Part shown: one piece after another, positions 4,835-31,000 of the stretch | Layout: each line of letters starts with the position of its first letter | Numbering within the stretch: the first letter of the stretch is position 1 | Position numbers and translations under genes: made by a program | Origin: Candidatus Saccharimonadota bacterium | GTDB lineage: Archaea > Micrarchaeota > Micrarchaeia > Micrarchaeales > Micrarchaeaceae | DNA length: 32,000 nt | Reading direction: 5' to 3' | NCBI GenBank assembly: GCA_963705375.1 | Contig: OY970071.1 | Span: forward strand, 180,001-212,000 | Notes under the pieces: generated by a model | What the model was told of the DNA's origin: nothing | Database searches by the model: none | The model's input: only the letters and a program-made list of their open reading frames with translations

Positions 4835-5791
4835 TTATAATTGTCTTCTTATCTGCCTTAGCCCGTCAACGATCCTTTGCTGCCGTTCAAGCGCAGCCAG
4901 GAGCGCGTCTGTAGGTTCGAGAAGAACATTGTGATGGTCTGCACCTATGCAGTGGTTGTCCCGGATGTAGACAAACAAATCAGAAACTCTTTTTAGGGCA
5001 CTCACTTCATTCTCATGGATCCTCTCAATTTTTCTAATCTTACGGGATGTCGAAGAAAAAGAGATGGCAGTATTGTCGAGTTCAGCACCTGACTGACGGT
5101 CTGCAGCAACACCTAAGGGCTTTCTGGTCCAGCCATCCGTTTCAAGACTTTCTAATGCAGAAACGGCATCGCGCGTCAAAGAAGCTTCCATAGCACCCCT
5201 CATCAAGCGTGCGTTCTTGATATGGTGACCGTACTCTTGCCCTGCTTCAAGACCAAAAATAAAGTCCATATACGCCCTCTGGGCAGACTCGTAAGCATTA
5301 TAATGGATGGGATCTATCTCAATGTCTTTCTTTACTGTATCGCGCACTATTTCCTTAGTCGTGCTGCTGAGAACTTCATTATTCAAGAAAAGCACGTGTG
5401 ATGGATCAGAAGAGTCTGTAATTGAAACTACTTTTGTGAGATTGTAGTGCTTGTGGTCAGGGCCCAATTCTATGTATGGAATTGCTCCATGCCATACGAT
5501 GCCAGTAACTGGCGCACTCAAAACACATACGTCATTGTCATCATAAACAGGGCCTTCCGTATTAAGCAGTACGACATCTATCAGTGGCACGTCTTCTCCT
5601 TTCTTCATGTGCCTTATATTGGCTTTCGCGAGCTTTTCCAGGTGTGCAAGAGAATCAAGCCTGCCTTCTGGCGTGTCGAGCTGAGCGAGTGCCGAGTGTG
5701 CGGTCTTGTGCTTCGTCATTGCATCAAATAGTGTTGCATAGCCCAAGTACTTATATGCTGCTTTTTTGTGCATGTACATACTTTCATACAT
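4835..5791 (-). CDS. Hypothetical protein (318 aa, no recognised domain)
   Basis: Long uninterrupted ORF with non-repetitive, balanced composition. It converges on the upstream operon and is divergent from pcm. No motif recognised. Confidence 0.6.
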   Translation of the reverse strand: MYESMYMHKKAAYKYLGYATLFDAMTKHKTAHSALAQLDTPEGRLDSLAHLEKLAKANIRHMKKGEDVPLIDVVLLNTEGPVYDDNDVCVLSAPVTGIVWHGAIPYIELGPDHKHYNLTKVVSITDSSDPSHVLFLNNEVLSSTTKEIVRDTVKKDIEIDPIHYNAYESAQRAYMDFIFGLEAGQEYGHHIKNARLMRGAMEASLTRDAVSALESLETDGWTRKPLGVAADRQSGAELDNTAISFSSTSRKIRKIERIHENEVSALKRVSDLFVYIRDNHCIGADHHNVLLEPTDALLAALERQQRIVDGLRQIRRQL

Positions 5792-7022: not shown

Positions 7023-7547
7023 ATGGCAGAACAGCCAAAACAAAAACTAGCAGTGCAAAAAACAGAATCACCGTTCCTAAGACAGGAGCCTTCACCACGG
7101 ACACAGGCAGAAATGATGAAGAACATGCCAGAAGGGACAGACGCTGCGAGCCTCAAGACACTTTTTATCGAGAATGAAGATGTTAAGGACGTACTCTATA
7201 AGCTACTGGCTAATCGAGACAATTGGGTAATGACACCAGATAGAGGCGTGTATTTCAACGGCCCAGCAGAGCTATCCAGCGACGGGACGCTGAAGCCATT
7301 GCATACAGGAGAGAAGAAATGGGAAAGCCTCTCTACTGAGGACCAGGATGCGTTCTGGTACGAGTGTGTAAGAACACATCCAGGATCGACAATAATCCTT
7401 ACTCATGGCGGCAAAGGCTGTGACGGTCCAGTCGTAATAGCCTTATCGCAAGATGAAAAACACAGGATTGTTGCGGTGGCGATGGGAGAAGAGTTCAGAG
7501 GCAACGTGCTTTATGTGCCAAAAGACATGCTGAGAACAGAAGAGTAA
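7023..7547 (+). CDS. Hypothetical protein (174 aa)
   Basis: Clean ORF with an ATG start about 25 nt downstream of the TATA-like box. The N-terminus MAEQPKQKLAVQKTESPF resembles the N-terminus of the next gene. Confidence 0.6.
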   Translation: MAEQPKQKLAVQKTESPFLRQEPSPRTQAEMMKNMPEGTDAASLKTLFIENEDVKDVLYKLLANRDNWVMTPDRGVYFNGPAELSSDGTLKPLHTGEKKWESLSTEDQDAFWYECVRTHPGSTIILTHGGKGCDGPVVIALSQDEKHRIVAVAMGEEFRGNVLYVPKDMLRTEE

Positions 7548-7626
7548 CTGGCACATATCTGTTTGAAATACGGGCTATGAAAAGCAACCATGGCCCATTA
7601 CTTTTATTTCTATTGCTCGTGGTGGT

Positions 7627-9039
7627 GTGGCCGAAATAACAAAAGACAAGCAGAAGGCGGATAAGGCACCTTCAGATTCAACAGGCACTAACCCCTCTAA
7701 ACAAGAGTCTCCTTTTGAGCCCAGAATGCAGAGGAACTTCCAAAGGCTAGAGACAATGTTGAGGGACTCTGACAGCTCGTGCAACATAGAGTTGATGGGC
7801 GTCGCACATGTCGGCAGAGCCGGACAGGGGATAATAGACGCTGCAAAGAGCGCCCAAATATTGACTCTGGAGCTTCCAAGAAACATAGTGCATATCGGTC
7901 TTGCAGGAGAGCAGACCAGGATTCTGGAGAAGAATGCATTCTGGCGATCGCTAATAAACGGCATCAGGGACCAGGCAGGCACGCAGATGGTCCGCGGCAT
8001 AGAGGTTAATCAGACGATGCGGATAGCGTACAAGCGGCTGATGCCCCATTATGGGAGCGGAGGCCTCTCACCCTCCATGTACATATTAGAAGTAGAGGAT
8101 ACGCACAACAAAACTCTAGATTTTCTAAAAAAACACAGACTCCTCAGCAAAGATGACCTTTTGGCGCTGCAACAGTACAATTGGGCAATAGTTGACAACA
8201 AAAGACTCTTTTACACAGTATACAATGCGATGAGGGACGTGCTTAAGCACGGAAATAATGAGCACCTAAACAAGCACAGCTTTGACATGCGATGGCACAG
8301 ACACTTCTCCACAGAGCTCCGTCTAGCTGCAATATCAAACGAGATTCCAAAGAATGGCAGGTATCTTACCACGCTGATAAAAGAAGTGGACAGCTCTTTG
8401 GTAAGGTCTAACGCACTCATAGTCAAATCATTGGCAAGAATGAACCTAGGCCTTACGGTATCTGAGAGATATACGATAGGCCTCTGCGCGCTGCAAACAG
8501 TATTGCTTTCCCATGCAGAGCTCAAAGATGCTGAAGAGATATTCACGTGCACTTACCAATATGCCAAGCAGCATGGCGGTGAGAACATACGTCTGCTCCA
8601 CATAGGAGGTGCGGCACACACCGCGCTTATACGAGATATGCTTATGTCCAGCATAAGCGAAGGCTCCAGGATAAACGTTTCTATGATGAATGATCCGCGC
8701 TTTGAGGCTTCTAGCGTAGACGTTATAACTGTGAGCATACCTGCCTTCTTCCGCAGGCACATACCTTTCAACGAACTCCTATCTTCGGTGTGGGCAGACC
8801 ATTATGAGGTTTATGCAGATCCCAAAAACATAGTTAGCATGGTCAGGAAGGCAATAACAGAAAACCTTGCAGAATTCTACAAGATTCTATTCATAGACAG
8901 GATGGTTGGCGGCAAGGATGACACTCTTTCAGACTGCAAGAAAATAAACAAGAAAAAATCAGATCTTGATGCGCTTCCTATCAACGTGCTTTATGCGAAG
9001 TACATGAGAAGTGTGCCAGAGCTTGGAGACAAAGAATGA
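7627..9039 (+). CDS. Hypothetical protein (470 aa, no recognised domain)
   Basis: Long ORF with a GTG start at 7627, about 20 nt downstream of cttttatttctattg (7601-7615). The N-terminus MAEITKDKQKADK...QESPF parallels that of the upstream gene, which supports this start. Confidence 0.6.
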   Translation: MAEITKDKQKADKAPSDSTGTNPSKQESPFEPRMQRNFQRLETMLRDSDSSCNIELMGVAHVGRAGQGIIDAAKSAQILTLELPRNIVHIGLAGEQTRILEKNAFWRSLINGIRDQAGTQMVRGIEVNQTMRIAYKRLMPHYGSGGLSPSMYILEVEDTHNKTLDFLKKHRLLSKDDLLALQQYNWAIVDNKRLFYTVYNAMRDVLKHGNNEHLNKHSFDMRWHRHFSTELRLAAISNEIPKNGRYLTTLIKEVDSSLVRSNALIVKSLARMNLGLTVSERYTIGLCALQTVLLSHAELKDAEEIFTCTYQYAKQHGGENIRLLHIGGAAHTALIRDMLMSSISEGSRINVSMMNDPRFEASSVDVITVSIPAFFRRHIPFNELLSSVWADHYEVYADPKNIVSMVRKAITENLAEFYKILFIDRMVGGKDDTLSDCKKINKKKSDLDALPINVLYAKYMRSVPELGDKE

Positions 9040-9081
9040 CCTCCGGATTACAGAGCATCTGAGTTTGCACGAAGATATTGC

Positions 9082-9372
9082 CTACTCCACGGTTTTGTTC
9101 CTTGTTATGTAGTAGAGCAGATACACCTCGACAACAACGTTGCCTAGCGCGAAAAGGAGGTATGAGCTCATCTTGATGGCTACGATGTACAGGCAGAGCA
9201 AGCCCAGAAGCACCCCGACAACTGCGAAGTTCCTGATTGGCAACTTCTGGGCGTCCTTCACGGCCTTCCTGCTTTGGCGGTACAGGTACACGCTGACCAG
9301 CACTATGAACACTATGCTCCACGTTATAACTAGCGAATACCAGCCGAACAGAGCACTATATGTGGTTGCCAT
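9082..9372 (-). CDS. Small 3-TM membrane protein immediately downstream of mgtA
   Basis: The in-frame ATG at 9372 (MATTYSALFGWYSLVITWSIVFIVLVSVYLY...) lies 10 nt after the mgtA stop (9383-9385). The ORF-track start at 9432 would overlap mgtA by 50 nt. Three hydrophobic helices. Confidence 0.5.
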   Translation of the reverse strand: MATTYSALFGWYSLVITWSIVFIVLVSVYLYRQSRKAVKDAQKLPIRNFAVVGVLLGLLCLYIVAIKMSSYLLFALGNVVVEVYLLYYITRNKTVE

Positions 9373-9382
9373 GGCATCACGC

Positions 9383-12037
9383 TTACAGGTTCTTGCATAT
9401 CTTGTAGAAGAACACTTTTCCCATGTCGACAAGCAGCAGGTACGTGATGGTCATCAGCACCAGCAGAGACCAGTAGCCAATTGGCAGCGGCACGAAGCCT
9501 AGGAAGCTCCCGAACGACGTTAGAGGCAAGAGCGTACCAAAGGCGACCAGCGCCAGCGTGAGCAGCACCACCCACTTGCCTGGCTTGCTCGAGAAGAAAG
9601 GTACCTTCCGCGTCCTTATAACAAATATTATCAGCACCTCGGTCCAGAAAGATTCGACGAACCAGCCGCTCTGGAAGATTCCCGCAGCAATCTTCAGTTG
9701 TTGCGGATTGGCGAGATTGAGGTGCATCGGGGCTATGAATATGAAAAGCATTATGCCAAAGGTGAGGAAGTCGTAGACCGAGCTGAACGGACCGAAAAAC
9801 AGCGTGTACTTCCGCACAAAGTTTATGTCCCATTTCTTCGGCTTCTTTATGAACTCCTGGTCGACGTTGTCAGTTGGCAGCGTCATGTTCGATGTGTCAT
9901 AGAGCACGTTCATGAAGAGTATCTGCACAGGAAGCATAGGCAGAAACGGAAGGAATATGGACGCAGTCGCGGCGCTGAACATGTTGCCGAAGTTAGAGCT
10001 TGTTCCCATCAGTATGTACTTAAGGGTGTTCTCGAAGGTCTTCCTTCCTTCCTGTATGCCGTTTGCAAGCACCATCAGGTCCTTTTCCAACAACACGATG
10101 TCAGCGGCGTCCTTCGAAACGTCGACCGCAGTGTCCACGGAAATGCCGACATCAGCCTCGTACAGTGCAGGCGCGTCGTTCACGCCGTCGCCCATGAAGC
10201 CGACGACGTGCTCATTCTCCTTCAATGCCTTTATAACGTCAAGCTTCTGCTGAGGGGTTATCCTTGCGAATATGGTGGTCTCTTCGGCCGCTTGCTTCAA
10301 CTGAACCCAGCTCATCTTCGCCATGTCCGATCCGCGGACAACACGTTTCACGCGTATTTTCAGCTCCTCGCAGATCTTCTTCGCGACGAGTTCGTTGTCG
10401 CCAGTGAGTATCTTCACATCGACGCCCATCTGGTTCAGCATTTCGACCGCGTCGTGCGCACCGCTTTTTGGCAGGTCAGTGAACACCAGCAAACCAAGGA
10501 AGGTGAGCCCTGCCTCGTCACCGGTACTATGGTTCTTGTGTTCTGAGGTTTCCTTGTATGCGACTGCCAGCACCCTGTAGCCCGCTTCGGAAAACTTGTT
10601 AAGTTCTGCTTCAATCTGCTTTGTCGCATGCGAAAAGTTCTCCATTTTGCCTCCGATTTCAGCATATTGGCATTTCGGAAACAACGACTCCGGAGCGCCT
10701 TTTGTGATGAAGATGTGCTCGTCGCCCCTCCTGACCGCAACAGACATCATCCGTCTCTGGTAATCGAACGGAACCTCATCAATTCTTTTGTACGCTTTCA
10801 GGCCGTCTTGGAGCATGTTGTCAATAGAATACTTCCATATTGCGGCATCCATTGCATTTCCTTTGGCACCCTCTAGGCTTGATGCAGAATTGCAGAGTGT
10901 CGAGTAATCCACTATCTTGGTGTCTCTTACGTCGTTGAGCAGCCAGTACTCCCTCATTGTTATGTTGCCGTCGGTGAGAGTACCCGTCTTATCCGTGCAC
11001 AGGACGTCCATGTTTCCGAAGTCCTCAATTGACACGAGCCGCTTCACGACAACTTTCTTCTCTGCCATCCTGCCTGCACCATGCGACAGGCTTATGGTCA
11101 CAATGGCGGGCATGAGCTCAGGCACGAGGCCCACAGCAACAGCAAGAGAGAAAAGCAGAGAATCGAAGAACGGGTGCCCTATGAGGGTGTTCAAGACGAA
11201 TATGGCAACTACCAGCGCACCGGTCAGCGTCATCAGCATGTTGCCGTACGCCTTTATCCCTTTCTGGAACTCTGTCGGAGGGTGCGGCCTTGCAAGGCTT
11301 CCGGCTATCGCGCCGAATTCGGTATACTTTCCTGTCGCGACCACTACGCCCTTGCCGCTTCCATGGTCTATGCTGGTGCCCATGAAGAGATAGTTGCTAA
11401 GCTCATGAGGCGTCGGCTGTTCAGAATGCACTCTGCCAGTCTGCTTGTCGACAGGAAATGCCTCTCCTGTAAGGTTCGCCTCGTTCGCCTGCATCTCCTT
11501 CGAACTGAGTATCCTCAAGTCTGCAGGCACGATACTCCCGATGTAGACAGAGACAATGTCTCCAGGCACAAGCTCCTCGGCGTTGATCTCCAGCTCCTTG
11601 CCGTTCCTTATTACGATGGCCCTTGTCGAGACCTTGTGCTGCAGCGTCTCGACAGTCGCCTCAGCCTTGTACTCGTTATAGAACCCGAGCACCACCGCGA
11701 GCACGATCATTAAAAGTATTACTGCAGACTGGTCCAATTCGCCAAGGAAACCTGTGATTACCGCACAGAGCACCAATATGACAAATATGGAGTTGTTGAA
11801 CTGCCTGAGAAAGACCTTCATCTTGCTTAGGCTCTTGCCAGGCAGCAGATTGCGGCCGTAGGACTTCAGCCTTTTTTCTGCCTCTTCTTCGGAAAGCCCG
11901 TGTTCGTAGGTGTCCAGAGACTTGCAGACATCCTCGTTGCTCAAGGACCAGTAATCCTTACGTGATGCCGTACTATAGGTGGTGGTTTTCATTTTCCATC
12001 CCAAGTTATCAAGCAGGCTCCTGGTGTATGTCGACAC
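9383..12037 (-). CDS. mgtA: Magnesium-translocating P-type ATPase (MgtA type)
   Basis: Phosphorylation site CTDKTGTLT, TGDN, MGDGVNDAPAL. The MgtA-specific segment NVLYDTSNMTLPTDNVDQEFIKKPKKW compares with E. coli NLLYDVSQVAIPFDNVD...KPQRW (from memory). An alternative start is at 11992 (MKTTTYS). Confidence 0.9.
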   Translation of the reverse strand: MSTYTRSLLDNLGWKMKTTTYSTASRKDYWSLSNEDVCKSLDTYEHGLSEEEAEKRLKSYGRNLLPGKSLSKMKVFLRQFNNSIFVILVLCAVITGFLGELDQSAVILLMIVLAVVLGFYNEYKAEATVETLQHKVSTRAIVIRNGKELEINAEELVPGDIVSVYIGSIVPADLRILSSKEMQANEANLTGEAFPVDKQTGRVHSEQPTPHELSNYLFMGTSIDHGSGKGVVVATGKYTEFGAIAGSLARPHPPTEFQKGIKAYGNMLMTLTGALVVAIFVLNTLIGHPFFDSLLFSLAVAVGLVPELMPAIVTISLSHGAGRMAEKKVVVKRLVSIEDFGNMDVLCTDKTGTLTDGNITMREYWLLNDVRDTKIVDYSTLCNSASSLEGAKGNAMDAAIWKYSIDNMLQDGLKAYKRIDEVPFDYQRRMMSVAVRRGDEHIFITKGAPESLFPKCQYAEIGGKMENFSHATKQIEAELNKFSEAGYRVLAVAYKETSEHKNHSTGDEAGLTFLGLLVFTDLPKSGAHDAVEMLNQMGVDVKILTGDNELVAKKICEELKIRVKRVVRGSDMAKMSWVQLKQAAEETTIFARITPQQKLDVIKALKENEHVVGFMGDGVNDAPALYEADVGISVDTAVDVSKDAADIVLLEKDLMVLANGIQEGRKTFENTLKYILMGTSSNFGNMFSAATASIFLPFLPMLPVQILFMNVLYDTSNMTLPTDNVDQEFIKKPKKWDINFVRKYTLFFGPFSSVYDFLTFGIMLFIFIAPMHLNLANPQQLKIAAGIFQSGWFVESFWTEVLIIFVIRTRKVPFFSSKPGKWVVLLTLALVAFGTLLPLTSFGSFLGFVPLPIGYWSLLVLMTITYLLLVDMGKVFFYKICKNL

Positions 12038-12779
12038 GTTCCATTCTCGGGAAACGGTTCTTTATCTTGATCTCGAGCTTGCTTACGATGTCGTGCGCCT
12101 TGTTTATGCTCATATTTGGGTCGAAATAGCATTTCATGACAAGATGCTGGTTGCCCGCTATGCTCCTGATCGAAACGACTTGGGCTTCCTTGATCTCAGG
12201 GAAGCTTTCTGCCATGTCCTCTATCATCGAGCTCAGCTCCAGCGGCGTGTCTGCCATTTCTTTTGAAACCAATTCAGACACAGGCTCCATGTGGACGGAT
12301 ATGTCCCCGATGTTCTTCACGCTTCTCCTGAGCTTCGCCTCGATCTTGTCCGCTATGGAATGGGCATCCCTTATGCTTATATTGTCGCTCACTTCGAGGT
12401 GCATGTCGATGCAAGTCTTCCCATCTATCTGCTGGATGTGCACGTCGTGAACGCCCCTTGTGCCAGGCACCCTGTCCGCGATTTCCTTAACGGTTTCCCA
12501 TAGGTTGCCGCCAGCACCCTTGAACGGTTCTGTGTGCACAGTCACTGTCGAATCGGGGATTATCTTCTTGGTCACCTCCTCGACCTCTGATGCGATCTGG
12601 TGCACCTCGTCAAAGCTCAAATCGCTGTCCAACAGGACGTGCATCGTCACGGCATACCGCCTTCCGGTCATCCGCACATCGATGTCGTGGCAGCCCCTCA
12701 CTGCCTTGAGAGCCTCGACACGGGCCTTGATCCTCTTGGCGATATCCTTCTCAGAACGTTCTACTAGTGGCAAAGACAT
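12009..12779 (-). CDS. Stand-alone protein of three tandem cation-diffusion-facilitator cytoplasmic (ZT_dimer-like) domains, with no transmembrane domain
   Basis: Three ~85-aa units each follow the CDF C-terminal-domain pattern and end in H-x-E-P: (1) VRGCHDIDVRMTGRRYAVTMHVLLD...EVHQIA...VTVHTEPF; (2) TRGVHDVHIQQIDGKTCIDMHLEV...DAHSIADKIE...ISVHMEPV; (3) IKEAQVVSIRSIAGNQHLVMKCYFD...KAHDIVSKLE...VDIHQEPA. There is an SD-like AAGAGGT 6-8 nt upstream of the ATG. The stop overlaps the mgtA long-form start by 29 nt. Confidence 0.75.
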   Translation of the reverse strand: MSLPLVERSEKDIAKRIKARVEALKAVRGCHDIDVRMTGRRYAVTMHVLLDSDLSFDEVHQIASEVEEVTKKIIPDSTVTVHTEPFKGAGGNLWETVKEIADRVPGTRGVHDVHIQQIDGKTCIDMHLEVSDNISIRDAHSIADKIEAKLRRSVKNIGDISVHMEPVSELVSKEMADTPLELSSMIEDMAESFPEIKEAQVVSIRSIAGNQHLVMKCYFDPNMSINKAHDIVSKLEIKIKNRFPRMERVDIHQEPA

Positions 12780-13135
12780 ACAATTACCTCTTGTTTATTT
12801 TGTCTTAAAGAGAATTGATAAACAGATGCATGACAGATAAAACTACCCAATACGGGAAGGGGTAGTCTAGAAGTAATATCTAAAGAATCAGATGCGCTGC
12901 TGCGCAATGGACTTCTGTCTGCACCAGTCTTGGTCCAAGATCCGATATGTTTCATTATTTTTGCTGCCCTCAGTGCTTGCCTTATGCTCTGCTTCTCCCG
13001 AGCGCGCATACCTAGGTACCAAACCCTTAAAAGAGTTTCTGCTAAGCAGGAATGATTGTAGCAGCTGCCGGAACGTTTCTGCACGGAACCGGCGCATGCT
13101 CAACGAAAGTCAACTCCGAGCCGTAGAATCAAAGA

Positions 13136-13381
13136 TTATTTCTGACCGCAGTTGCAGTTGCAACCACCACGCATCCTGCCTCCGCACAGCACAGCGAGCA
13201 TTATCAACGCAGCAAACCACGTCGTGATGCTGTATGCTATGTTAAGCCCAAACAGCGCGTCTAAAGCCCATATGAAAGCCAGTGGAACTAGCGCTACGAG
13301 CACCAGTGCTGCAATCACGATGATAGGTATGGCCCACATCGGAGGCATGCGATTTTTCTTTATAGGCATCTTTACACCCAT
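13136..13381 (-). CDS. Small 2-TM membrane protein with a Cys/Gly-rich C-terminal tail
   Basis: 81 aa: MGVKMPIKKNRMPPMWAIPIIVIAALVLVALVPLAFIW...WFAALIMLAVLCGGRMRGGCNCNCGQK. Hydrophobic helices and a positive N-terminus, but no homolog recognised. Confidence 0.45.
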   Translation of the reverse strand: MGVKMPIKKNRMPPMWAIPIIVIAALVLVALVPLAFIWALDALFGLNIAYSITTWFAALIMLAVLCGGRMRGGCNCNCGQK

Positions 13382-13908
13382 TTAGAATAAAGACGTCAAG
13401 CTTATAAACTGAACGTCCTGCGCACCATGAAGTAAGAAACTGAAGCTAGAAAGTGCACCAGGATGATCCAGGCATACCATCGACGCGACACGAAATAACA
13501 CAAAATGCATATATATCTATTCCAGCACACACACGCGGTAAGTGATACTGTGCACATGAATAATAAAACGGACCATAAGCAAACGAATCAAGACGAGCAT
13601 AATGAAATAATGCCAGCCCCGCAGCGTAGGACGGGCTCTCTCGATGGCATAGCCTACTTAAAGCGGCAAGAAGACCAGGAACGAAAAGACAAGGACAAGG
13701 AGGATGAAGGCTCGGATGAAGATATCGTGCTGCCATAGGCTGTGATATCAAAAGCACGCATTCTGCAGAGAACACAGACTTCACCCACCTTGAATTGCTA
13801 AAAAGACACGGAGCGTGAGCGCACTTTGATTTAGCAGACACGCACGTATACAGATAAGATAGTGGTGCTTTGCATTTCAGCAAAAATGACTGACGCAGAC
13901 TGCCGTAA

Positions 13909-13926: not shown

Positions 13927-14085
13927 TTGAAAAATTGCAGCATTCGCGTGAGAACGCATTCACACAGCGATGATGCAGGTCCCGTCTTCCACCATGATGG
14001 TTGTACGTCAGACATTAGGTTGCGTACCGACTCTTCCATTAATGCGCGCGAAGGCACACATAATCCGCACAGCCTCTGCGAGGAG

Positions 14086-16044
14086 ATGAAATGGCTCTTC
14101 GAGTCGAAACATCTAGACATAGACGAAGTGGCACATAAATCCAAAGTGAGCCGAAGTACAATCTACAATGTTCTAAACGGCACCATTCCACACCGGCAGA
14201 TACTTTACGCACTAGCTTGCGCAATGGATCTGGATGAAGAGGAAATTAAGCACGTGCTAGGGCTTGGCGGATATGCTACGGAGCGCGGCAACACTCTAGG
14301 AGAAAGACTGAAGTGGTTCTTGGAAATTGAAGGGATAACAGAACAAAAGCTGAGTGAAGACGCGGGCATTAACCGACGCGCCATAGCCAGGGTCATCCAC
14401 CACAATGTCGTGCCATACAAAAGCACCGTCCTCGCGCTGGCCGCTGCCATGAAACTTGGTGATGATGAAAAGAATGAGATGTTGGAACTTGCCGGCTATG
14501 CTGCTGAGAAAAGATGCACGTTGGGGGGCGAGCTGGAAAGACTTTCGATGCAGAAACATCTCACTAAAAAAGACTTGAGCGAACGCTCTGGATTGGGTCT
14601 GAGCACAATATACGATGTTCTTAACGATGCAGTGGCACCTCTGCAGTTAACAGTCCTAAAGATAATCGACGCTATCGGGCTTAGCGAGGAGGAAAAGCGG
14701 AGCGTCCTGGAATTGGGCAACTACGTTGAGCAAAGAGGCACGTTGGGCGGAGAGTTGAAAAGACAGGCGATGGAGAAAAAGCTGACGAAGGACCAATTGA
14801 GTGAGCTTTTTGGCGTTCATGAAGATACCATGAACCACATTTTCGCCAATGAAACTGTTCCTAAGTTCGAAACGCTTTTTGCGCTGACGTCGGCCATGAA
14901 AATAGAGGGCACAACTCAGAGATACATTTACAAACTTGCAGGATATGATCTGTGCACATTAGGAGGTGAACTGAGGTTGCTTGCCGCACAGAGAGGGCTT
15001 GCAAAGGACAATCTCTCAGCCCTCACAGGCATAAAGATACGAAAGATACGCGCGATATTCCTGAATTCGGTCATGCCGAAATTTGAGGACATTTCTGCGT
15101 TGGTCTCTGCCATGAAACTTGATGGTGCCGCGCATAGGTATATAGATAATCTTGCAGGACGCGGTACGTGCACATTAGGATGCGAACTGCATATGCTTGC
15201 AGCAGAGAGAGGTTTCACCGAAGACGCTCTGGGAGATTCGGCCGCGATAGGCAGAGACACTGTGAGGGGGATTCTCCGCGATGAGATAGTGCCCAAGTTC
15301 GAGGACATTTTTGGGCTGGTCTCGGCGATGAAACTAGAAGATATGGAGCTGAGGTACGTTTACAAGCTTGCAGGATACGATCTGTTCACACTAGGGGGAG
15401 AACTGAGGCTGTTTGCTGCAGAGAGAGGATTTTCAGAGGATGCGTTGGTGGCGCTTTCGGGCGTTGTTCATCGTAGGTTAAACGCGATCTTCCATAATGA
15501 GGCAGCACCGTCCACATGGGACCTCCTAAAAATAGCCAACAGCCTCGAGCTTGGCGACGCTGAAATGAGCTATGTATTAAAACTTGCAGGAATTAGCACA
15601 GAGAGAAGAAGCACGTTAGGTGAAGAGCTGGAGAGATTGGCCATACTGGGACGGTTAGACAAAAACATGTTGAGTGCGACTGCAAAGGTTGGTCGCAACA
15701 CATTAGACGGCATCCTTCACAACGAGACCACGCCATCCCTAGAGGCCCTCACAAGAATAGCGAACGCAATGAATCTAGAGTATGAGAATAGGGAGTATGT
15801 ATTAGAGCTGGTAGGTGGTGCAGAGCGGAGCGAAACGCCGGGCGGAGAGCTTGAGCGGCTCATGTACCTGAAAGGCATGACACAAGCGACGCTGTGCAAG
15901 GACTCTGGTGTGCACCGCACTTTCATAATTGAAGCACTCCGTAACAAAAAGGCAATAGGGGACAAGACAGCCCGAAAGCTCATCGGTGCACTTCACCTTG
16001 AAGAGGAAGACCTGGAATACGTATACAAGCTGTTGGGTTATGAC
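14086..16044 (+). repeat. Nine in-frame tandem coding repeats (207-225 nt each) encoding the HTH modules
   Basis: Unit boundaries, set by the recurring T(L/P)G(G/E)(E/R)L: 14086, 14293, 14518, 14740, 14956, 15172, 15388, 15613, 15835. The units are diverged at the DNA level (an old duplication, not an assembly artefact). Units 4-6 share PKFE(T/D)(L/I)xxLxSAMK(I/L). Confidence 0.8.
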
Positions 16045-16698
16045 GTTGCGCGCATAGAAAAGATGCTGCGCAAAGAAGAAGAGACAGTTGCTTGCGTCAA
16101 GAAGAAAAGCATAAGCGAGAGACTGAATGACATGGCAGACACACTTAATGGCGCAGGAATACCTGTTACAGAAGAGGCAAGGAACAAAGCCGCAGAATAC
16201 GTCCAAAAATGCGTTAACGACGGTTTCATTAGAGGGAGCAGGGCATCTGCCAACGTGGCAGCAGTGGCACTGTACGCATCATGCAGGAATGCAGACGTCG
16301 TAGTGGTCCTTGAAGACATTACGCAGGCGTTGGGACTCAAGCACGACGCAGTCCACAACACCTATGAAGCTATGCGAAGTGAGCTCGGGATTGCGGCAAA
16401 ACCCCTTGACACTGCGAGCTTTGTGGAGTACTACCTTAGCAAGCTTGCACGCAGAGACGTTCTAGATGACGCACTGAACCTGCTGAATGACCACGCAGGG
16501 TCAATGTTCTCAGGTAAGGACCAGAGGAAAATCGCAGCGACAGTGATCTGCACTGCAAGCATAAGGTCAGACGCAGGGCACATAGATCCTGCGGATCTAA
16601 TGAAAGAATGCGGCCTCGTTACGTCACCTAACGTCAAGCTTGAAACACTATTGGACATGTGCAACAAGCTAGAGAAGAGGATTCGGGAAGGAAATTAG
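14086..16698 (+). CDS. Chimeric regulator candidate with nine tandem Cro/C1 (XRE)-type HTH modules fused to a TFB/TFIIB two-cyclin core (no Zn ribbon, no B-reader)
   Basis: Nine 70-75-aa units each fit the pattern TLGGEL+.L....G.....L....G+....+..+.......P....+..+..A+.L......Y+..LAGY. The C-terminus (16111-16695) fits the TFB cyclin repeats: ARNKAAEYVQKCVNDGFIRGSRASANVAAVALYASCRNADVVVVLEDITQALGLKHDAVHNTYEAMRSELGI, then FVEYYLSKL...ALNLLN...FSGKDQRKIAATVICTASIRSDAGHIDPADLMKECGLV. The 5' end is uncertain: ATG 14086 is preferred, the alternatives are GTG 13948 or TTG 13927 (ORF track). Confidence 0.8.
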   Translation: MKWLFESKHLDIDEVAHKSKVSRSTIYNVLNGTIPHRQILYALACAMDLDEEEIKHVLGLGGYATERGNTLGERLKWFLEIEGITEQKLSEDAGINRRAIARVIHHNVVPYKSTVLALAAAMKLGDDEKNEMLELAGYAAEKRCTLGGELERLSMQKHLTKKDLSERSGLGLSTIYDVLNDAVAPLQLTVLKIIDAIGLSEEEKRSVLELGNYVEQRGTLGGELKRQAMEKKLTKDQLSELFGVHEDTMNHIFANETVPKFETLFALTSAMKIEGTTQRYIYKLAGYDLCTLGGELRLLAAQRGLAKDNLSALTGIKIRKIRAIFLNSVMPKFEDISALVSAMKLDGAAHRYIDNLAGRGTCTLGCELHMLAAERGFTEDALGDSAAIGRDTVRGILRDEIVPKFEDIFGLVSAMKLEDMELRYVYKLAGYDLFTLGGELRLFAAERGFSEDALVALSGVVHRRLNAIFHNEAAPSTWDLLKIANSLELGDAEMSYVLKLAGISTERRSTLGEELERLAILGRLDKNMLSATAKVGRNTLDGILHNETTPSLEALTRIANAMNLEYENREYVLELVGGAERSETPGGELERLMYLKGMTQATLCKDSGVHRTFIIEALRNKKAIGDKTARKLIGALHLEEEDLEYVYKLLGYDVARIEKMLRKEEETVACVKKKSISERLNDMADTLNGAGIPVTEEARNKAAEYVQKCVNDGFIRGSRASANVAAVALYASCRNADVVVVLEDITQALGLKHDAVHNTYEAMRSELGIAAKPLDTASFVEYYLSKLARRDVLDDALNLLNDHAGSMFSGKDQRKIAATVICTASIRSDAGHIDPADLMKECGLVTSPNVKLETLLDMCNKLEKRIREGN

Positions 16699-22025: not shown

Positions 22026-25000
22026 ATGGCGACGCGCACCCGCAAGTTCAATCCGATGCTTCTTCTGATATCAGTGGTCCTGCTGCTTAAAGTTTGCCCC
22101 TACGTAGGGGCATGGACCAGCACAGGCGCCACCGTAACCTGGCAGGGGCACAGTTATCCAGTATTTGATGCGGGCATCGACGCCGGGTGCACATCCACAA
22201 TATACAACAATAATGCGAATTCTAATTCGAAAGTCACTTGCAACGAAGGTCCTTGGTATAATCCCGGTTCCGTATCTGTTACATTAACCTATGCCGGCAC
22301 TGGGCCAGATTTTTATTGCGACAATAGCTCTTGCGCTACCCAGAGCAGCTTACCCCAAGATTGGAAGTATGTCGATGCGTATAAAATAACAGGCACTTCA
22401 GGAGGATTCTCACCAGCTTCATGGTCCTCTTCAGATAATACCTCTGAACTTTATTTCATATTCAAGTACAATCCTGGCACTCTGGGAATAGGTGCGGGGG
22501 GCTTATCCGCAAGATTCTACACCACCACAATCCCACAGGGTCCTGCATCCACCAGCACCTCATTGGTCGCAAGCAACTCGACATATTATCCACAATACAA
22601 CAATTACTACGCGAATTATGGCACGCCCATAACAATCACAGCAACAGTCTCTCCCGCGCCGTCAAATGGAGATACAGTAACGTTCTATGATTCTTGGAAC
22701 TATGGCACGGCCTCCGTGCTGGGCACGGCCACAATACAGAACGGCGTCGCGAAATTCACAACCAGAGCATTACTTGGCGAATGGCACGGCATTACTGCAA
22801 ACTTTTCAGGAGATTCGTCCTATAAGACGAGCACAAGTCCTGCGCTCGGAATAACAATGTATAAGGTCAATTCCACGACATCTCTCTCTTCAAGTTCCAA
22901 CCCGTCGACATACACTTCTTCAATAACGTTCACAGCCACAGTAACACCGACACCTCCGAACGGCGAAACCGTAACGTTCTATGACAGCGGAACACAGATT
23001 GGCACAGGCACTACATCAGGCGGCGTCGTGACATTCACAACGACCACGTTAACACCTGGCACGCATTCGATCACCGCAAGATATCCAGATGACTATTATA
23101 GTCTATATACAAGCACAAGTCCTGCACTTTCACAAACAGTCAACAAGGAACCGACCGCAATAAGCCTCACCTCAAACAGTAACCCATCGACCTATGGCAC
23201 TTCGGTGATTTTCACAGCAACCGTGTCTCCATCCGTTCCGAACGGCGAGACAGTAACATTCTATAACGGAGGAACGCAGATCGGCATAGGAACAACATCA
23301 GGCAGCACCGCGACATTCACCGCGACAACGCTCGCTGCAGGCACATATTCCATAACTGCGACATACTCCGGAGATTCCAATTATATTGGCAGCACAAGCT
23401 CCGCAGTTTCCCAAGTAGTCAGCAAGGTGTCGACCACGACATCTCTCTCTTCAAGTCCCAACCCCGCAATACAGGGCACATCTGTGACATTCACCGCGAC
23501 AGTGTCGCCATCAGTCCCGAACGGTGAGACTGTAACATTCTATAGCATTAACAACGGAACTCAGATTGGAACAGGCACCACGTCAGGAAGTATCGCAACC
23601 TTCACCACTAACACACTTACAGCAGGCACCCGTTCATTCACCGCAACATACTCTGGCAATTCTAATTATGCAAGCAGTACAAGTTCTGCAGTTTCGCAAG
23701 CAGTCAATAAGGTGTCGACCACGACATCTCTCTCCTCGAGTTTCAATCCTTCAATACATGGTGCCTCTGTGACATTCACCGCAACAGTGTCGCCATCGGT
23801 TCCGAACGGCGAGACCGTGACGTTCTATGACAATTCTGTACAGATTGGCACAGGCACCACCACCTCTAGCAGTGTCGCAACTTTCACCACTAATGCACTT
23901 ACAGCAGGCACTCATTCGATCACAGCAACATATTACGGCGATGCACACTTCCTAGGCAGCAGCTCTACTCTATCCCAAACAATAAACGCTGGAACACCAA
24001 CAGCAACAAGCCTCACCTCGAGCATTAACCCATCGACCCATGGCACTTCAGTGACATTCACAGCAACAGTGTCCCCATCAGTTCCGAACGGCGAGACCGT
24101 GACGTTCTATAACGGCGGGACACAGATCGGCACCGGAACGACATCAGGCAGCGTTGTGACATTCACCACGGCCGTGCTAGCCGTAGGAACAGACCCCATA
24201 ACTGCGACATACTCCGGAGATGTCAATTTCTTCGGCAGCACAAGCTCTGCAGTTTCGCAGACGGTCAACAAGCAGCCAACCATAATCTCGCTAAATTCGA
24301 ATGCGACCCAATCGCTTTACGGCTCTGCAGCCACATTCACTGCGAGGATATCGACACCGATTATTCCGAACGGCGAGACGGTGACATTCTATGACGGCAC
24401 CAACCAGATAGGTACCAGCTTCACATCAAACAGCACCGCAATACTGACAACAGACGGACTTGCGGCAGGTACTCATTCGATAACTGCCACATATTCTGGC
24501 GATTCCAACTTTACAAGCAGCACGAGCTCTGCAGTCTCGCAGGTCGTCACAAAACTATCCGCATCTACATATACCCCATCTACATGGGTATTGCAAAGCA
24601 ACACGCTTTCTGTTGGCGAACAGGGTCAGAGCTGTGTAAAAGCAAACAGTTACATCTACTGCATGGGAGGTCTAAATTATCCCACTACGGTCCAATCCGC
24701 ACAAATATTATCGAACGGCGGGACCTCAGCATGGGCATCTTCCAGCAACACGCTTAGTTATTCAAGCGCATTCCATAGCTGCGTTTCAGCAAACGGTTAT
24801 GTGTACTGCATGGGCGGCGAGTATTCCCCTGCCGGAGTAGAATACGCGAAGATATTGGGCAATGGACAGCTCGGACAATGGCATGCCCAAAACGCGAGCG
24901 CACAGCTTAGCGCTGGCGTACAGGGCCTGAGCTGCGTCACAGTCAATAGCTACATCTACTGCATGGGAGGTTACAATGCCAGCACAAGCACTTATCTTGG

Positions 25001-28000
25001 AAATATCCAGTATGCGCAGATATCAAGTGGCGGCGGAGCTACAGGACCATGGCATTTGCAAAGTGCCAATACGCTTGTAGCGGGACTTGCTTATGGATCA
25101 TGCGTAACAGCAAACAATTACATCTACTGCATGGGAGGGGTAGGGTATCCTACCACAATAGAATATGCGCCAATAGTCGCAAACGGTGTAGTAGGTTCAT
25201 GGCAGACCATGAATCCCTCTAACATTTATCTTCCAGTTTCACTATATATGGGCAGCTGTGCTGCCGCTGCCGGCTCTATCTACTGCATGGGAGGCCAAAA
25301 TGCGAACGCTGTACAATATGCACGAATATTGAATGGTTCAGGAACATCTGCATGGACATTGCAAAATGCGAGCATGCAGCTCGCAGTAGGTGCAATGTAT
25401 CATAGCTGCATAGCGGCAAACAATTACCTCTACTGCATGGGCGACAATAACAACAGGAACTCTATACAGTACACGCCCCTAGTGACTCCAACAACCACAT
25501 CAGTAAACTCAAACAATAATCCTTCGACTTACGGAGCGTCAGTAGCGCTCACCGCGGCAGTATTTCCTGCAGTCCCAAACGGCCAGACAGTAACATTCTA
25601 TGACAATTCCATACAGATCGGCACAGCTACCACCTCAAACAGCAATGCAACTATAGCTTCAAGTACGCTTGCAATAGGCACCCACTCAATAACGGCCAGA
25701 TATTCAGGCTACACGAACGCCAAAGGAAGCATAAGCGCAGTCTTGTCTCAGATAGTCAAGACGCCAACCACCACAAGCCTTACATCAAGTGCAAACCCGT
25801 CAGCTTACGGCAATTCGATAACATTCACAGCCACAGTGTCGCCATCGATACCAAATGGCGAGACGGTGACGTTCTACGACAGCGCCAACCAGATCGGAAC
25901 AGGCACAACAGCAGGCAGCGTCGCAACATTCTCAACAAACGCACTCGCCACAGGCACTCATCAGATAACCGCGACGTACTCTGGAGATTCGAACTTCGTG
26001 ACAAGCACAAGTTCCGCAGTCTCGCAGGTCGTAAATACAAAAGCGACCACAACCTCTCTTGCTTCAAGTGCCAACCCGTCAACATATGGCAATTCAGTGA
26101 CATTCACAGCCACCATATCTCCATCCGTGCCAAACGGAGAGACCGTTACATTCTATGATAATGGCGCAACGATCGGCACGAGCACAACGTTTGCAAGTGT
26201 CGCCACTTTCGCAACCAATGCGTTCACAGCAGGCACTCATCCGATAACCGCGACGTACGCTGGAGATTCGAACTTCGTGACAAGCACAAGTTCCGCAGTC
26301 TCGCAGGTCGTCAACAAGAAGCCGACCGCAACGTCTCTTGCTTCAAGTGCAAATCCGACTACATACGGCAATTCAATCACATTCACCGCCACGGTGTCGC
26401 CATCAGTCCCGAACGGCGAGACAGTGACGTTCTACGACAGCTCGAATCAGATAGGCACAGGCACAACTTCTGCGAATGTCGCAACATTCACGACTAACGC
26501 GTTTGCAGCGGGCACCCATCCGATAACCGCAACATATTCTGGCGATTCCAATTTTGTTGGCAGCACAAGTTCTGCAGTATCCCAAATTGTCAACAAGAAG
26601 TCAACAACAAGCACTCTAATTTCAGGCGCCAACCCATCAACATACGGCAATTCGATCACATTCACAGCCACAGTGTCGCCATCAATACCGAACGGCGAGA
26701 CAGTGACGTTCTATGACAGCGCCAACCAGATAGGAACAGGCACAACGGCAGGCAGTGTCGCAACCTTCTCAACAAACACACTAGTCACAGGCACTCACCC
26801 AGTAACCGCAACGTACTCTGGAGATTCAAACTTCGTGACAAGCACAAGTTCCGCAGTCTCTCAGGTCGTCAACACAAGGTCGACATCAACAGCCCTCACA
26901 TCAAACTCAAACCCGTCAACATACACCGCTTCAATCACATTCACAGCCACAGTGTCGCCATCGGTTCCAAACGGTGAGACAGTAACGTTCTATGACAGCG
27001 CCAATCAGATCGGCACAGGCACAACATCAGGCAGCGTTGCAACCTTCTCAACAAACGCGCTCACGGCAGGCACTCATCCAATAACCGCAACGTACTCTGG
27101 AGATTCAAACTTCGTGACAAGCACAAGTTCCGCAGTCTCGCAGGTCGTAAACACAAAGTCGACAGCAACAGCCCTCACATCAAACTCCAACCCATCAACA
27201 TACACCGCTTCAATCACATTCACAGCCACAGTGTCGCCATCGGTTCCAAACGGTGAGACAGTAACGTTCTATGACAGCGCCAATCAGATCGGCACAGGCA
27301 CAACATCAGGCAGCGTTGCAACCTTATCAACAAACGCGCTCACGGCAGGCACTCATCCAATAACCGCAACATACTCTGGCGATTCCAACTTCATTACAAG
27401 CACAAGTTCCGCAGTCTCTCAGGTCGTAAACACAAAGTCGACAGCAACAGCCCTCACATCAAACTCAAACCCGTCAACATACACATCTTCGATAATGTTC
27501 ACCGCTACGGTATCTCCATCAGTTCCGAACGGAGAGACCGTCACATTCTATGACAATTCTATACAGGTCGGAATAGGAACAACCTCTTCAAGTGTCGCAA
27601 CATTCACGACCAATGCATTTACAGCAGGCACCTATCAGATAACCGCGACATACTCTGGAGATTCGAACTTCGTGACAAGTACAAGTTCCGCAGTCTCGCA
27701 GGTCGTAAACACAAAGTCGACAGCAACAGCCCTCACATCAAACGCCAACCCATCAACATACACTGCTTCAATCACATTCACAGCCACAGTGTCGCCATCG
27801 GTTCCAAACGGTGAGACAGTAACGTTCTATGACAGCGCCAATCAGATCGGCACAGGCACAACATCAGGCAGCGTTGCAACCTTATCAACAAACGCGCTCA
27901 CGGCAGGCACTCATCCAATAACCGCAACATACTCTGGCGATTCCAACTTCATTACAAGCACAAGTTCCGCAGTCTCTCAGGTCGTCAACACAAGGTCTAC

Positions 28001-31000
28001 AGCAACAGCCCTCACATCAAACTCCAACCCGTCAACATACACATCTTCGATAATGTTCACCGCTACGGTATCTCCATCAGTTCCGAACGGCGAGACAGTC
28101 ACATTCTATGACAATTCTATACAGATCGGTACGGGCATAACATCTTCAAGCACCGCAACCTTCTCCACAAACTCACTCATAGCAGGCACTCATCCAATAA
28201 CCGCAACATACTCTGGCGATTCCAACTTCATTACAAGCACAAGTTCCGCAGTCTCTCAGGTCGTCAACACAAGGTCTACAGCAACAGCCCTCACATCAAA
28301 CTCCAACCCGTCAACATACACATCTTCGATAATGTTCACCGCTACGGTATCTCCATCAGTTCCGAACGGCGAGACAGTCACATTCTATGACAATTCTATA
28401 CAGATCGGTACGGGCATAACATCTTCAAGCACCGCAACCTTCTCCACAAACTCACTCATAGCAGGCACTCAGTCAATTACGGCAACATATTCCGGCGATT
28501 CCAATTTCATAGGCAGCACAAGCACCCCAATATCTCAGGTCGTCAACGATAAATCCACCACAACAAGTCTTGTCTCTAACGCAAACCCATCAACATACAG
28601 CAACACAATCACGTTCACCGCCACAGTGTCCCCATCAGTACCAAATGACGAGACAGTAACATTCTATAACAGCGGAACGCAGATCGGAACCGGAACGACC
28701 TCTTCAAGCACTGCAATGTTCACAACCAACGCACTTGTTGCTGGAACTCAATACATTACGGCAACATATTCCGGCGACTCTAACTTCACCGGCAGCACGA
28801 GTTCCGCATTCTCACAGACAGTAGACAAGGAATCAACAATGACAAGTCTGATTTCAAGCGCTAACCCATCACTTTATGGCTCTAATGTAATGTTCACAGC
28901 CACAGTGTCGCCATCAGTTCCGAACGGCGAAAGCATAGTCTTCTATGCAGGCACTGTGACTCCTGCAAACCTCATTGGAAGCTCAACAACCTCTAGCAGC
29001 GCTGCAACACTGACAACGGCTTTCTTTAAGACCGGCACTGCGCAGATAACGGCTGCGTATGAAGGCGATGCCAACTTTGTAACAAGCAACAGCATTCCTC
29101 TATCACAGACGCTCAATCCAGTTACTGGACAATCCGTTCTGGTGAGCACCACGCTAAATTCCATAGACGTAGGCTCAGCAGCCACAGTATCTGCAAGCCT
29201 TTCAGGTCTCTTGTTCAACACTAGCGCGGCAACATACTCGTGGAGCACGACCGGCTCATGCCCTGATTATGTGAATCCTGGCAACGTTCAGTCGTTCGTT
29301 TACTATTCGACAGCGTTAGGGACAACAGCAAACTGCAGATTCTCAGTTTCAGTGCATGACGCATACGGCAATTCAGGATCGGGAATCTCAAACACATTTA
29401 CAGTAGACGCAATCCCAACAGTGTCTGTATCAGGCACAGCAATTGCAGATGATAGCCAAACAATAACGCTCACGGCGACGGCAACAGGCACGGGCCTCAC
29501 ATACCAGTGGTACAATGACACGACCAACACGCCAGCCCAGATTGGCGGTGCAACATCCAACGTATTTACTGAAACAGCGAACGTTGTAGGCACATTCTAC
29601 TATTATGTAGTGGTCACTGACCAGAACAATGCACAAGTCAGGTCTGGAGACTCTGAGGTCGTGGTATATGCACTGCCTACGGTCAGTGTCTCAGGCACAT
29701 CAGCCGCAGACACAGGTCAGACCATAACCCTTACCGCGGCAGCGACAGGCACGGGCCTCACATACCAGTGGTACAATGACTCCACAGGAACGCCTAGCCA
29801 GATACACGGTGCCGTGTCCAGCACACTAACAAAGACTGCAGTTTCGGCAGGCACACTCAAGTATTATGTGCTGGTCACAGACCTTAATGGCAAGCAAGCG
29901 CAATCAGCAAATTCGACTGTTATAGTCTCGGCACCTCCAACAGTCAGCACCTCAGGCACGACCACTGCAGACGTTGGCCAAACCATAACGCTCACAGCAA
30001 CAGCATCAGGAACCGGCCTGACTTACCAGTGGTACAATGATAGCACAGGAACACCAGTTGCAATCACATTAGGCGGAACATCGAACACGTTCACTGAAAC
30101 AGCGAACGTCGTAGGCACATTCTACTATTATGTAGTGGCCACAGACCAGAACAACGTACAGGCAAGGTCTGCAGATTCCGAAGTGATGGTTTCTGCACTG
30201 CCGACAGTCAGCATCTCAGGCACTTCTGCCGCAGACACAGGCCAGACCATAACCCTTACCGCGGCAGCGACAGGCACTGGCCTCACATACCAGTGGTACA
30301 ACGACACCAGCACACCAATCCAGATTCATGGAGCAGTATCTAACACATTGACAAAGACCGCAGGTGCGACAGGCACGTTCAAGTACTATGTCATAGTTAC
30401 AGATTCTAACAACGAGCAGGCACAATCCGCTGATTCGCAGGTTGTCGTTTCAACGGTGCCAGTGAACAGCGGAGTCGAAGTCTCAGGCACGACCACTGCA
30501 GACGTTAGCCAAACCATTACACTCACAGCAACAGCCACAGGCACAGGCTTGACATACCAATGGTACAATGACACGACCAACACGCCAGTTCAGATAGCAG
30601 GAGCAACATCCAACGTATTTACTGAAACAGCAAACGCAATTGGAACATTCAACTATTATGTTGTGGTCACAGACCAGAACAACGTACAGGCAAGATCTGC
30701 AGATTCCGAAGTGATGGTTTCTGCACTGCCGACAGTCAGCGTCTCAGGCACTTCTGCCGCAGACACAGGCCAGACCATAACCCTTACCGCGGCAGCAACG
30801 GGCACTGGACTCACATACCAGTGGTACAACGACACCACAGGAACGCCTGGCCAGATACACGGCGCAGTGTCCAGCACGTTAACAAAGACGGCAGGTGCGA
30901 CAGGCACATTCGAATACTACGTTCTGGTCACAGACCTGAACGGCAAGCAGGCACAATCAGCAAATTCACCTGTCACAGTCTCGGCACTGCCGACAGTCAG

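Follow-up and report, generated by a model that had tools for sequence, protein, structure and literature searches.

A soluble protein of three tandem CDF C-terminal domains encoded beside MgtA and a small three-helix membrane protein in archaea

In this work, we describe a three-gene cassette on the reverse strand of a 32,000-nucleotide stretch of DNA (the window; positions 180,001 to 212,000 of contig OY970071.1, assembly GCA_963705375.1, placed by GTDB in the archaeal family Micrarchaeaceae). It encodes a 256-residue soluble protein made of three tandem C-terminal domains (CTDs) of cation diffusion facilitator (CDF) transporters, without a transmembrane domain (12009..12779; the triple-CTD protein), the magnesium-translocating P-type ATPase MgtA (9383..11992, 869 residues from a probable start at ATG 11992) and a 96-residue membrane protein of three helices (9082..9372). 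More than 100 archaeal genomes and metagenome contigs carry the trio, which seems not to have been described before: in the literature searched, no paper deals with stand-alone CDF C-terminal domains, tandem CTDs or archaeal partners of MgtA, and the sole archaeal mention found concerns the acidophile Nitrosotalea, in which mgtA may serve in adaptation to acid. Judged from the sequences, what is new is a known regulatory domain in a multi-copy and presumably trans-acting format, linked to a pump of another class.

The three genes and their shared distribution

The triple-CTD protein matches the Pfam family ZT_dimer (PF16916) in three stretches (173.4 bits against a cut-off of 26.7, E = 9 × 10−52), and the NCBIfam CDF models match it through their C-terminal roughly 75 positions only (TIGR01297, 99 bits, CTD part only). 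An earlier note on this DNA had described it as a soluble protein of three CDF C-terminal domains, each ending in H-x-E-P, that lacks the six-helix membrane domain of the transporters, and this description holds in every part. The H-x-E-P motifs lie at residues 82-85 (HTEP), 163-166 (HMEP) and 252-255 (HQEP). With a highest Kyte–Doolittle mean over 19 residues of 0.66, the protein lacks any hydrophobic segment, and it carries a net charge of about −8; a Pfam search of the protein gives no match to the six-helix domain Cation_efflux (PF01545), and the 356 nucleotides (nt) upstream of its gene contain no remnant of a membrane domain. It is therefore a member of the CDF-CTD family and not a CDF transporter, as the defining membrane domain is absent. 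The label ‘divalent metal cation transporter’ that databases attach to soluble relatives is a misleading and systematic annotation error. The protein also has no match to the HMA domain (PF00403) at E ≤ 1, and none of its three cysteines forms a CxxC motif. Six nucleotides upstream of its ATG, the sequence GAGGT (12786..12790, reverse strand) resembles a Shine–Dalgarno element and may act as one.

An AlphaFold2 model built on a 17-sequence alignment comprises three alpha-beta-beta-alpha-beta units (residues 5-85, 90-166 and 180-255; predicted local distance difference test (pLDDT) 82.8, predicted template modelling score (pTM) 0.60), with residues 1-4 (pLDDT < 50) and the linker 170-178 disordered. 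In Foldseek comparisons, single units superpose on the CTDs of MamM, YiiP and Thermotoga maritima CzcD with root-mean-square deviations of 1.3–1.6 Å over 74–79 residues and target-normalized TM scores of 0.82–0.89. Sequence and fold searches of the PDB returned no solved chain with more than one such CTD, only single CTDs. The three units are just 21–27% identical to each other, which indicates that the triplication is old.

The downstream neighbour is mgtA, as the earlier note had recognized. The ATPase matches TIGR01524 with 796 bits (cut-off 610.75), aligns end to end with the Escherichia coli MgtA structures 8uy7 and 9ejn (residues 18-863, E = 6 × 10−188) and carries the DKTGT motif in its translation. 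These matches identify it as a member of the MgtA (P3B) family, for which Mg2+ import is predicted. Its open reading frame (ORF; 9383-12037, reverse strand) yields 884 residues from GTG 12037 or 869 from ATG 11992, and the earlier note had carried both starts, the first overlapping the triple-CTD gene by 29 nt. The ATPases of the three closest homologous cassettes are 869 residues long and start at an ATG equivalent to 11992, 9–18 nt past the upstream stop codon, and the TIGR01524 alignment opens at profile position 17, which is residue 31 of the 884-residue form. For these two reasons we take ATG 11992, behind a 16-nt spacer, to be the most likely start; the overlap is probably an artefact of choosing the longest ORF. 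Such a spacer indicates tight co-transcription and does not prove the translational coupling that the note had asserted. No Rfam covariance model reached its gathering score anywhere in the window, that is, we found no known riboswitch, M-box or leader, and a scan of 8900-13500 for sigma-70 promoters and intrinsic terminators gave counts at the level of shuffled sequence, with models that are uninformative for an archaeon.

The third gene starts at ATG 9372, 10 nt after the mgtA stop codon, just as had been noted, and its product has three hydrophobic segments according to hydropathy and an alignment of 48 sequences. It matches no Pfam or NCBIfam family. Helix 1 carries the motif LF.WW..SIS, followed by a basic loop, helix 2 carries F.FVWVL..LL..YI, and helix 3 the invariant F..GN..VE..L..Y; the positive-inside rule suggests that the N-terminus faces out and the C-terminus in. 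Because an invariant Asn and an invariant Glu lie within a membrane helix, this segment may contact the membrane domain of the pump or an ion. The 96-residue protein is the product of a real, conserved gene. In being a small membrane protein encoded with a Mg2+ P-type ATPase, it resembles MgtS, MgtR and MgtU, which we take to be single-helix enterobacterial peptides; it differs from them in its length of 96–129 residues across the archaeal family, its three helices and its invariant intramembrane Asn/Glu motif. By length, helix number and the lack of a family match, it does not belong to their class. MgtS, MgtR and MgtU are membrane proteins of 28–31 residues that bind the Mg2+ P-type ATPase (MgtA or MgtB) and control its stability (PMC10710835).

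We approached the distribution of the cassette from each of its genes. A word-indexed protein search returned 17 close homologues of the triple-CTD protein, all of 252–261 residues and with ZT_dimer as their only domain; we inspected the metagenome context of seven family proteins, and the genes of six were followed by that of a P-type ATPase and then by an ORF of 96–117 residues. A scan of one genome per species found 60 loci, three of which end inside the gene. The earlier note had fixed the conservation of the linkage to mgtA in advance as a refutation test, and mgtA (56–79% identical) stands directly downstream on the same strand in 55 of the 57 testable genomes, the two exceptions being followed by a DNA methylase and an insertion sequence element or by unrelated enzymes. 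The small ORF is present in nearly all of these loci that have enough sequence, after a median gap of 10.5 nt, and the flanking genes are different at every locus inspected. Most of the 60 loci are from Bathyarchaeia, with others labelled Micrarchaeota, Aenigmatarchaeota, Nitrososphaeria/Conexivisphaerales, Thermoproteota and Asgard archaea (Atabeyarchaeia, Thorarchaeota); the closest (66%) is labelled Micrarchaeota. Sample labels such as SPRUCE suggest that the Bathyarchaeia and other uncultured archaea in which the cassette is widespread come from peat, soil and sediment.

Searching with the small protein instead recovered 80 metagenome contigs, and MgtA adjoins it in all 69 with room for a neighbour. 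The triple-CTD gene lies upstream in 26 of 31 pairs of mgtA and the small gene. The small protein is thus not only the conserved third member that had been proposed, but a tighter partner of MgtA than the triple-CTD protein is. Starting from MgtA, the full cassette was found at both of two arbitrarily chosen homologues. When the matrices of pairwise distances were compared across 64 loci, the three proteins showed strong correlations (r = 0.885, 0.794 and 0.793; Mantel p = 0.001), which means that the three genes were inherited, or transferred, as a unit. The linkage of the triple-CTD gene to mgtA is far beyond chance. In the closest relative of the window cassette, a ZIP-family metal transporter is encoded directly upstream of the triple-CTD gene on the same strand (L001:6965-7705). 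One further candidate homologue, P0018 (208 residues, 25% identity), was set aside because it belongs to another family, is truncated at the end of its contig and has a bacterial-looking context.

Metal-site residues and origin of the triple-CTD protein

We mapped the residues of the triple-CTD protein onto solved structures with a PDB profile search, which aligned domain 2 (residues 96-166) with residues 217-286 of E. coli YiiP and domain 1 (residues 10-88) with residues 213-291 of Shewanella oneidensis YiiP. Domain 2 (residues 90-166; 12282..12512, reverse strand) carries the full set of YiiP site C: H111, H127, H140, H163 and E165 align with H232, H248, H261′, H283 and D285, in the numbering that we take to be that of the E. 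coli structures of 2007 and 2009. These five positions are conserved at 84–99% across the stand-alone family, in which H114 and D125 of the same domain are invariant, the latter at the position of MamM D249. Domains 1 and 3 hold partial site-C sets only. In domain 1 (residues 5-85; 12525..12767, reverse strand), the site is eroded family-wide: H60 is kept in 100% and E84 in 90% of the stand-alone proteins, H82 in 42%, position 78 is Arg in 94% and D45 is lost, compared with 89% for D45, 76% for D78 and 91% for H82 in the relatives fused to a CDF membrane domain. Domain 3 (residues 180-255; 12015..12242, reverse strand) retains H229, H252 and E254 and has added H212, C217 and D250. In CDF dimers, the alpha-2 histidine equivalent to H60 reaches over to the site of the partner.

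The earlier note had proposed a divalent-cation sensor and implied Mg2+ as its ligand. The conserved His and Glu ligands, which are those of the Zn2+ site C of YiiP, point to a transition metal rather than to Mg2+ (PMC10617992). Site C is binuclear and keeps the CTD dimer closed; H234, H263 and D287 are described for it in S. oneidensis YiiP (PMC10617992). Metal binding to the CTD drives a scissor-like closure of CTD pairs, and the affinity of site C for Zn2+ is 33 nM in full-length YiiP and micromolar in isolated CTDs (PMC10617992); all characterized CDF CTDs bind transition metals (PMC10617992, PMC7441159). With the CTDs of YiiP/FieF, CzrB, MamM and T. maritima CzcD, the window protein shares the Pfam family, the fold and the site-C positions of domain 2; unlike them, it has no attached membrane domain, carries three copies per chain and does not form part of an antiporter but is encoded beside a P-type ATPase.

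An exhaustive profile search with the triple-CTD protein gave 3,740 relatives, 113 of them below 1 × 10−30. About half of the best 150 have 450–495 residues and align collinearly, over residues 5-255 of the query, with their C-terminal half behind a Cation_efflux domain. The nearest relatives are complete CDF exporters that carry three ZT_dimer domains, or five in one form of 653 residues. These exporters share the order of domains 1, 2 and 3 with the window protein, whereas they have the Cation_efflux domain and the domain-1 site (D45, D78, H82) and lack H114, D125 and the N-terminal peptide MPLPLVERS. We found no paper describing them, and this sizeable family, too, appears undescribed. Examples are MGQ9590096.1, ‘cation-efflux pump [Planctomycetota bacterium]’, P0031, P0032, P0035, P0037 and roughly 70 other representatives, and loci L132:502-1869, L032:11285-12691, L041:9933-11330 (reverse strand) and L046:2815-4230 (reverse strand). 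In seven loci from Bathyarchaeia, one of these exporters is encoded no more than about 5 kb from the cassette.

In a neighbour-joining tree, 81 stand-alone, MgtA-linked proteins form one clade apart from 70 CDF-fused ones. The simplest history, as far as sequences can tell, is that a triple-CTD CDF lost its membrane domain and was then captured beside mgtA. That constraint has moved from domain 1 to domain 2 agrees with what would be expected of a protein that parted from its membrane domain and took on a new function. The N-terminal consensus M-P-[LI]-P-[LF]-[VLF]-[ED]-R-S, which reads MSLPLVERS in the window protein (12753..12779, reverse strand), is near-universal in the stand-alone family and not conserved in triple-CTD CDFs; this peptide, MPLPLVERS for short, is a good candidate for a docking motif.

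Spacers and start codons of related cassettes, and other genes of the window

The spacer between the triple-CTD gene and mgtA measures 9–18 nt in the clade of the window and 90–150 nt in most Bathyarchaeia (L005-L066). In the latter it contains a box resembling a TATA and B recognition element (for example GCGTAATGCCTAAATACC) about 65 nt upstream of a GAGGCGGAT motif. A stop codon directly precedes the open mgtA frame in the cassettes of most Bathyarchaeia and of some Asgard archaea. No ATG, GTG or TTG precedes the conserved N-terminal DYWS in 35 of the 37 loci whose frame opens at TGAGGCGGA. Exactly 8 nt after the invariant GAGGCGGAT stands ACG in 43 of 48 distinct contexts (for example L009:3200-3260, L013:6845-6900, L034:6825-6880, L040 and L046), CTG or ATC in two others and ATG in L017, and loci with a canonical GGAGG Shine–Dalgarno sequence have ATG at the equivalent position. 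This pattern makes it probable that mgtA of Bathyarchaeia is initiated at a conserved ACG 8 nt after GAGGCGGAU, behind an extended Shine–Dalgarno sequence. A frameshifted start at the out-of-frame xTG/ATK codons of the motif was rejected, as that frame stops after four codons in L034. We found nothing relevant in the literature on ACG start codons in archaea. Gene callers shorten such MgtA proteins by 40–70 residues, to about 795–825, and many database entries are without the N-terminal domain. The mgtA of the window itself has a normal ATG start.

Two contigs with the cassette, L022 and L043, belong to records titled Candidatus Acidiferrales or Acidoferrum, in bacterial bins of the Acidobacteriota type. 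L043 has an archaeal-type TATA-like box and a GAGGCGGAT...ACG motif; in L022 the motif is present too, but ATC takes the place of ACG. Because of the box and the GAGGCGGAT of L043, we suspect that these are mis-binned archaeal contigs.

Elsewhere in the window, an 81-residue ORF just upstream of the cassette (13136-13381, reverse strand) encodes hydrophobic helices and a C-terminal cysteine motif, GGCNCNCGQK; it matches no family and is not conserved beside the cassette in other loci. ORFs of 174, 470 and 318 residues beside the cassette (7023-9039, forward strand, and 4835-5791, reverse strand) have no Pfam family at E ≤ 0.001. On the forward strand, 13927-16698 encodes a 923-residue protein of unusual architecture, with many tandem Cro/C1-type helix-turn-helix repeats and a C-terminal TFIIB cyclin-like repeat, and 22026-31868 a 3,280-residue, probably surface-exposed protein with about 20 Big_3_5 immunoglobulin-like domains and Big_7, Ig_7 and Kelch motifs.

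A possible metal-sensing partner of MgtA and its alternatives

The three genes may constitute one archaeal Mg2+-uptake module, in which MgtA would be the pump, by homology, and the 96-residue protein its dedicated membrane partner, as their invariant adjacency suggests. The triple-CTD protein would be a cytosolic metal-binding regulatory module descended from the tail of a triple-CTD CDF exporter. A divalent transition metal (of the Zn2+, Co2+, Ni2+, Fe2+ or Mn2+ class) would bind chiefly in domain 2, whose site is intact and is probably completed by H60 of domain 1 across a CDF-like domain–domain interface, and binding would close or rigidify the domain pair, as in CDF transporters. This conformational change could be relayed in trans to MgtA, possibly through the N-terminal MPLPLVERS peptide, and the activity or stability of the pump would thus be tuned to the metal status of the cytosol, perhaps to shield it from metals that inhibit it or leak through it when Mg2+ is scarce. 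The ATPase activity of E. coli MgtA is half-inhibited by less than 5 µM Zn2+, 37 µM Co2+ and 100 µM Ni2+, Ni2+ transport is reported for it, and it is reported to be highly sensitive to free Mg2+ (PMC4758953). We tentatively prefer, over the alternatives below, a CDF-derived cytosolic sensor or binder of transition metals that would influence MgtA in trans, the three-helix protein being a putative membrane subunit. The pseudo-trimer or six-domain dimer put forward in the earlier note would be a conceivable form of such a protein. The more demanding proposal of a three-subunit archaeal Mg2+ pump, in which a P-type ATPase would be gated allosterically by a CDF-antiporter domain that senses transition metals and is supplied in trans, we regard as doubtful.

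Several observations weigh against a sensor that acts on MgtA in trans. There is no direct evidence for contact between the three proteins, the inter-domain arrangement of the AlphaFold2 model has only moderate confidence, and the identity of the bound metal is argued from ligand chemistry only. Neither the best 150 relatives of the triple-CTD protein nor the best 120 of MgtA include a fusion of MgtA with ZT_dimer. In 5 of the 31 pairs of mgtA and the small gene, OsmC, MoxR-type or unknown genes occupy the upstream position; since these pairs are otherwise intact, the triple-CTD gene is an accessory and not an obligate part. The long spacer of Bathyarchaeia and its TATA-like box suggest that mgtA has its own promoter there and is possibly expressed separately. 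Finally, one divergent triple-CTD protein (P0017, 34% identity; L007:8001-10005) is followed by the gene of a Voltage_CLC chloride channel and not by mgtA.

Some of the same observations would suit a metal buffer or acceptor that forms no stable complex, that is, a cytosolic sponge or chaperone without allosteric control of MgtA, which would mop up the Zn2+, Co2+ or Ni2+ that poisons or enters the pump, or pass metals on to an exporter. CopZ- and Atx1-type metallochaperones, soluble ferredoxin-like metal binders that are encoded beside CopA, a P-type ATPase, and work with it, provide the analogy; the window protein departs from them in having neither HMA nor CxxC, in His/Glu rather than Cys ligands and in a partner that is a P3B importer and not a P1B exporter. 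The alpha-beta-beta-alpha-beta fold is metallochaperone-like, each chain could offer as many as three His/Glu sites, the five pairs just mentioned do without the gene, fusions are absent from the best relatives given above, an exporter of the triple-CTD type is close by in seven loci and a ZIP transporter adjoins the gene in the closest relative. The high sensitivity of MgtA to Zn2+, Co2+ and Ni2+ (PMC4758953) would give a buffer something to protect. However, only domain 2 is complete, and the erosion of domain 1, with Arg for Asp78 in 94%, would be odd under selection for binding capacity; a protein partner is suggested by the N-terminal peptide, which is conserved although disordered, and by E174, an invariant residue of the linker. 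The correlation of distances with MgtA (r = 0.885) fits a buffer and a regulator alike. On balance, we consider a buffer, the chief alternative to the sensor, unlikely.

A sensor of cytosolic free Mg2+ that feedback-inhibits MgtA, the model implied by the earlier note, seems improbable. Mg2+ prefers oxygen ligands, and direct sensing of this ion is less likely because the conserved ligands, which are the best-conserved residues of the family, are histidines that align with the Zn2+ site of YiiP; the record of the characterized CDF CTDs likewise speaks for transition metals (PMC10617992, PMC7441159). What such a sensor has in its favour is a genomic partner that imports Mg2+, a series of conserved acidic residues (E67, E129, E147, E174, E236, D125 and D250) with the net charge of about −8, and the reported high sensitivity of E. 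coli MgtA to free Mg2+ (PMC4758953). More improbable again is that the triple-CTD protein works independently of its neighbours, as part of a mobile island for divalent-cation homeostasis or on another target (for example a CDF or CLC transporter, or gene expression), and merely hitch-hikes with mgtA. The occurrence of the cassette in several archaeal phyla with MgtA proteins 56–79% identical suggests lateral spread as a unit, one homologue stands beside a CLC channel and promoter-like boxes separate the genes in Bathyarchaeia. However, some 100 loci whose flanks are unrelated preserve order, strand and adjacency, even where identity falls to 35%, and the spacing in the clade of the window is 9–18 nt; hitch-hiking fails to explain adjacency that has lasted so long together with purifying selection.

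If the three-subunit arrangement were true, the triple-CTD protein would be the first known soluble metal-sensing subunit of a P3B pump, and the CTD of CDF transporters would be a regulatory module that can be moved between transport systems, perhaps to CLC channels too. If regulation in trans were true, MgtA would be protected from being mis-metallated with Zn2+, Co2+ or Ni2+. Bacteria control Mg2+ uptake by devices such as PhoPQ, the mgtA leader, the M-box and MgtS, MgtR and MgtU, for none of which we detected a counterpart here, and to our knowledge the control of Mg2+ uptake in archaea is essentially unknown. The cassette is a concrete candidate for such control, with a predicted metal-binding protein derived from a CDF transporter and a new three-helix partner of MgtA.

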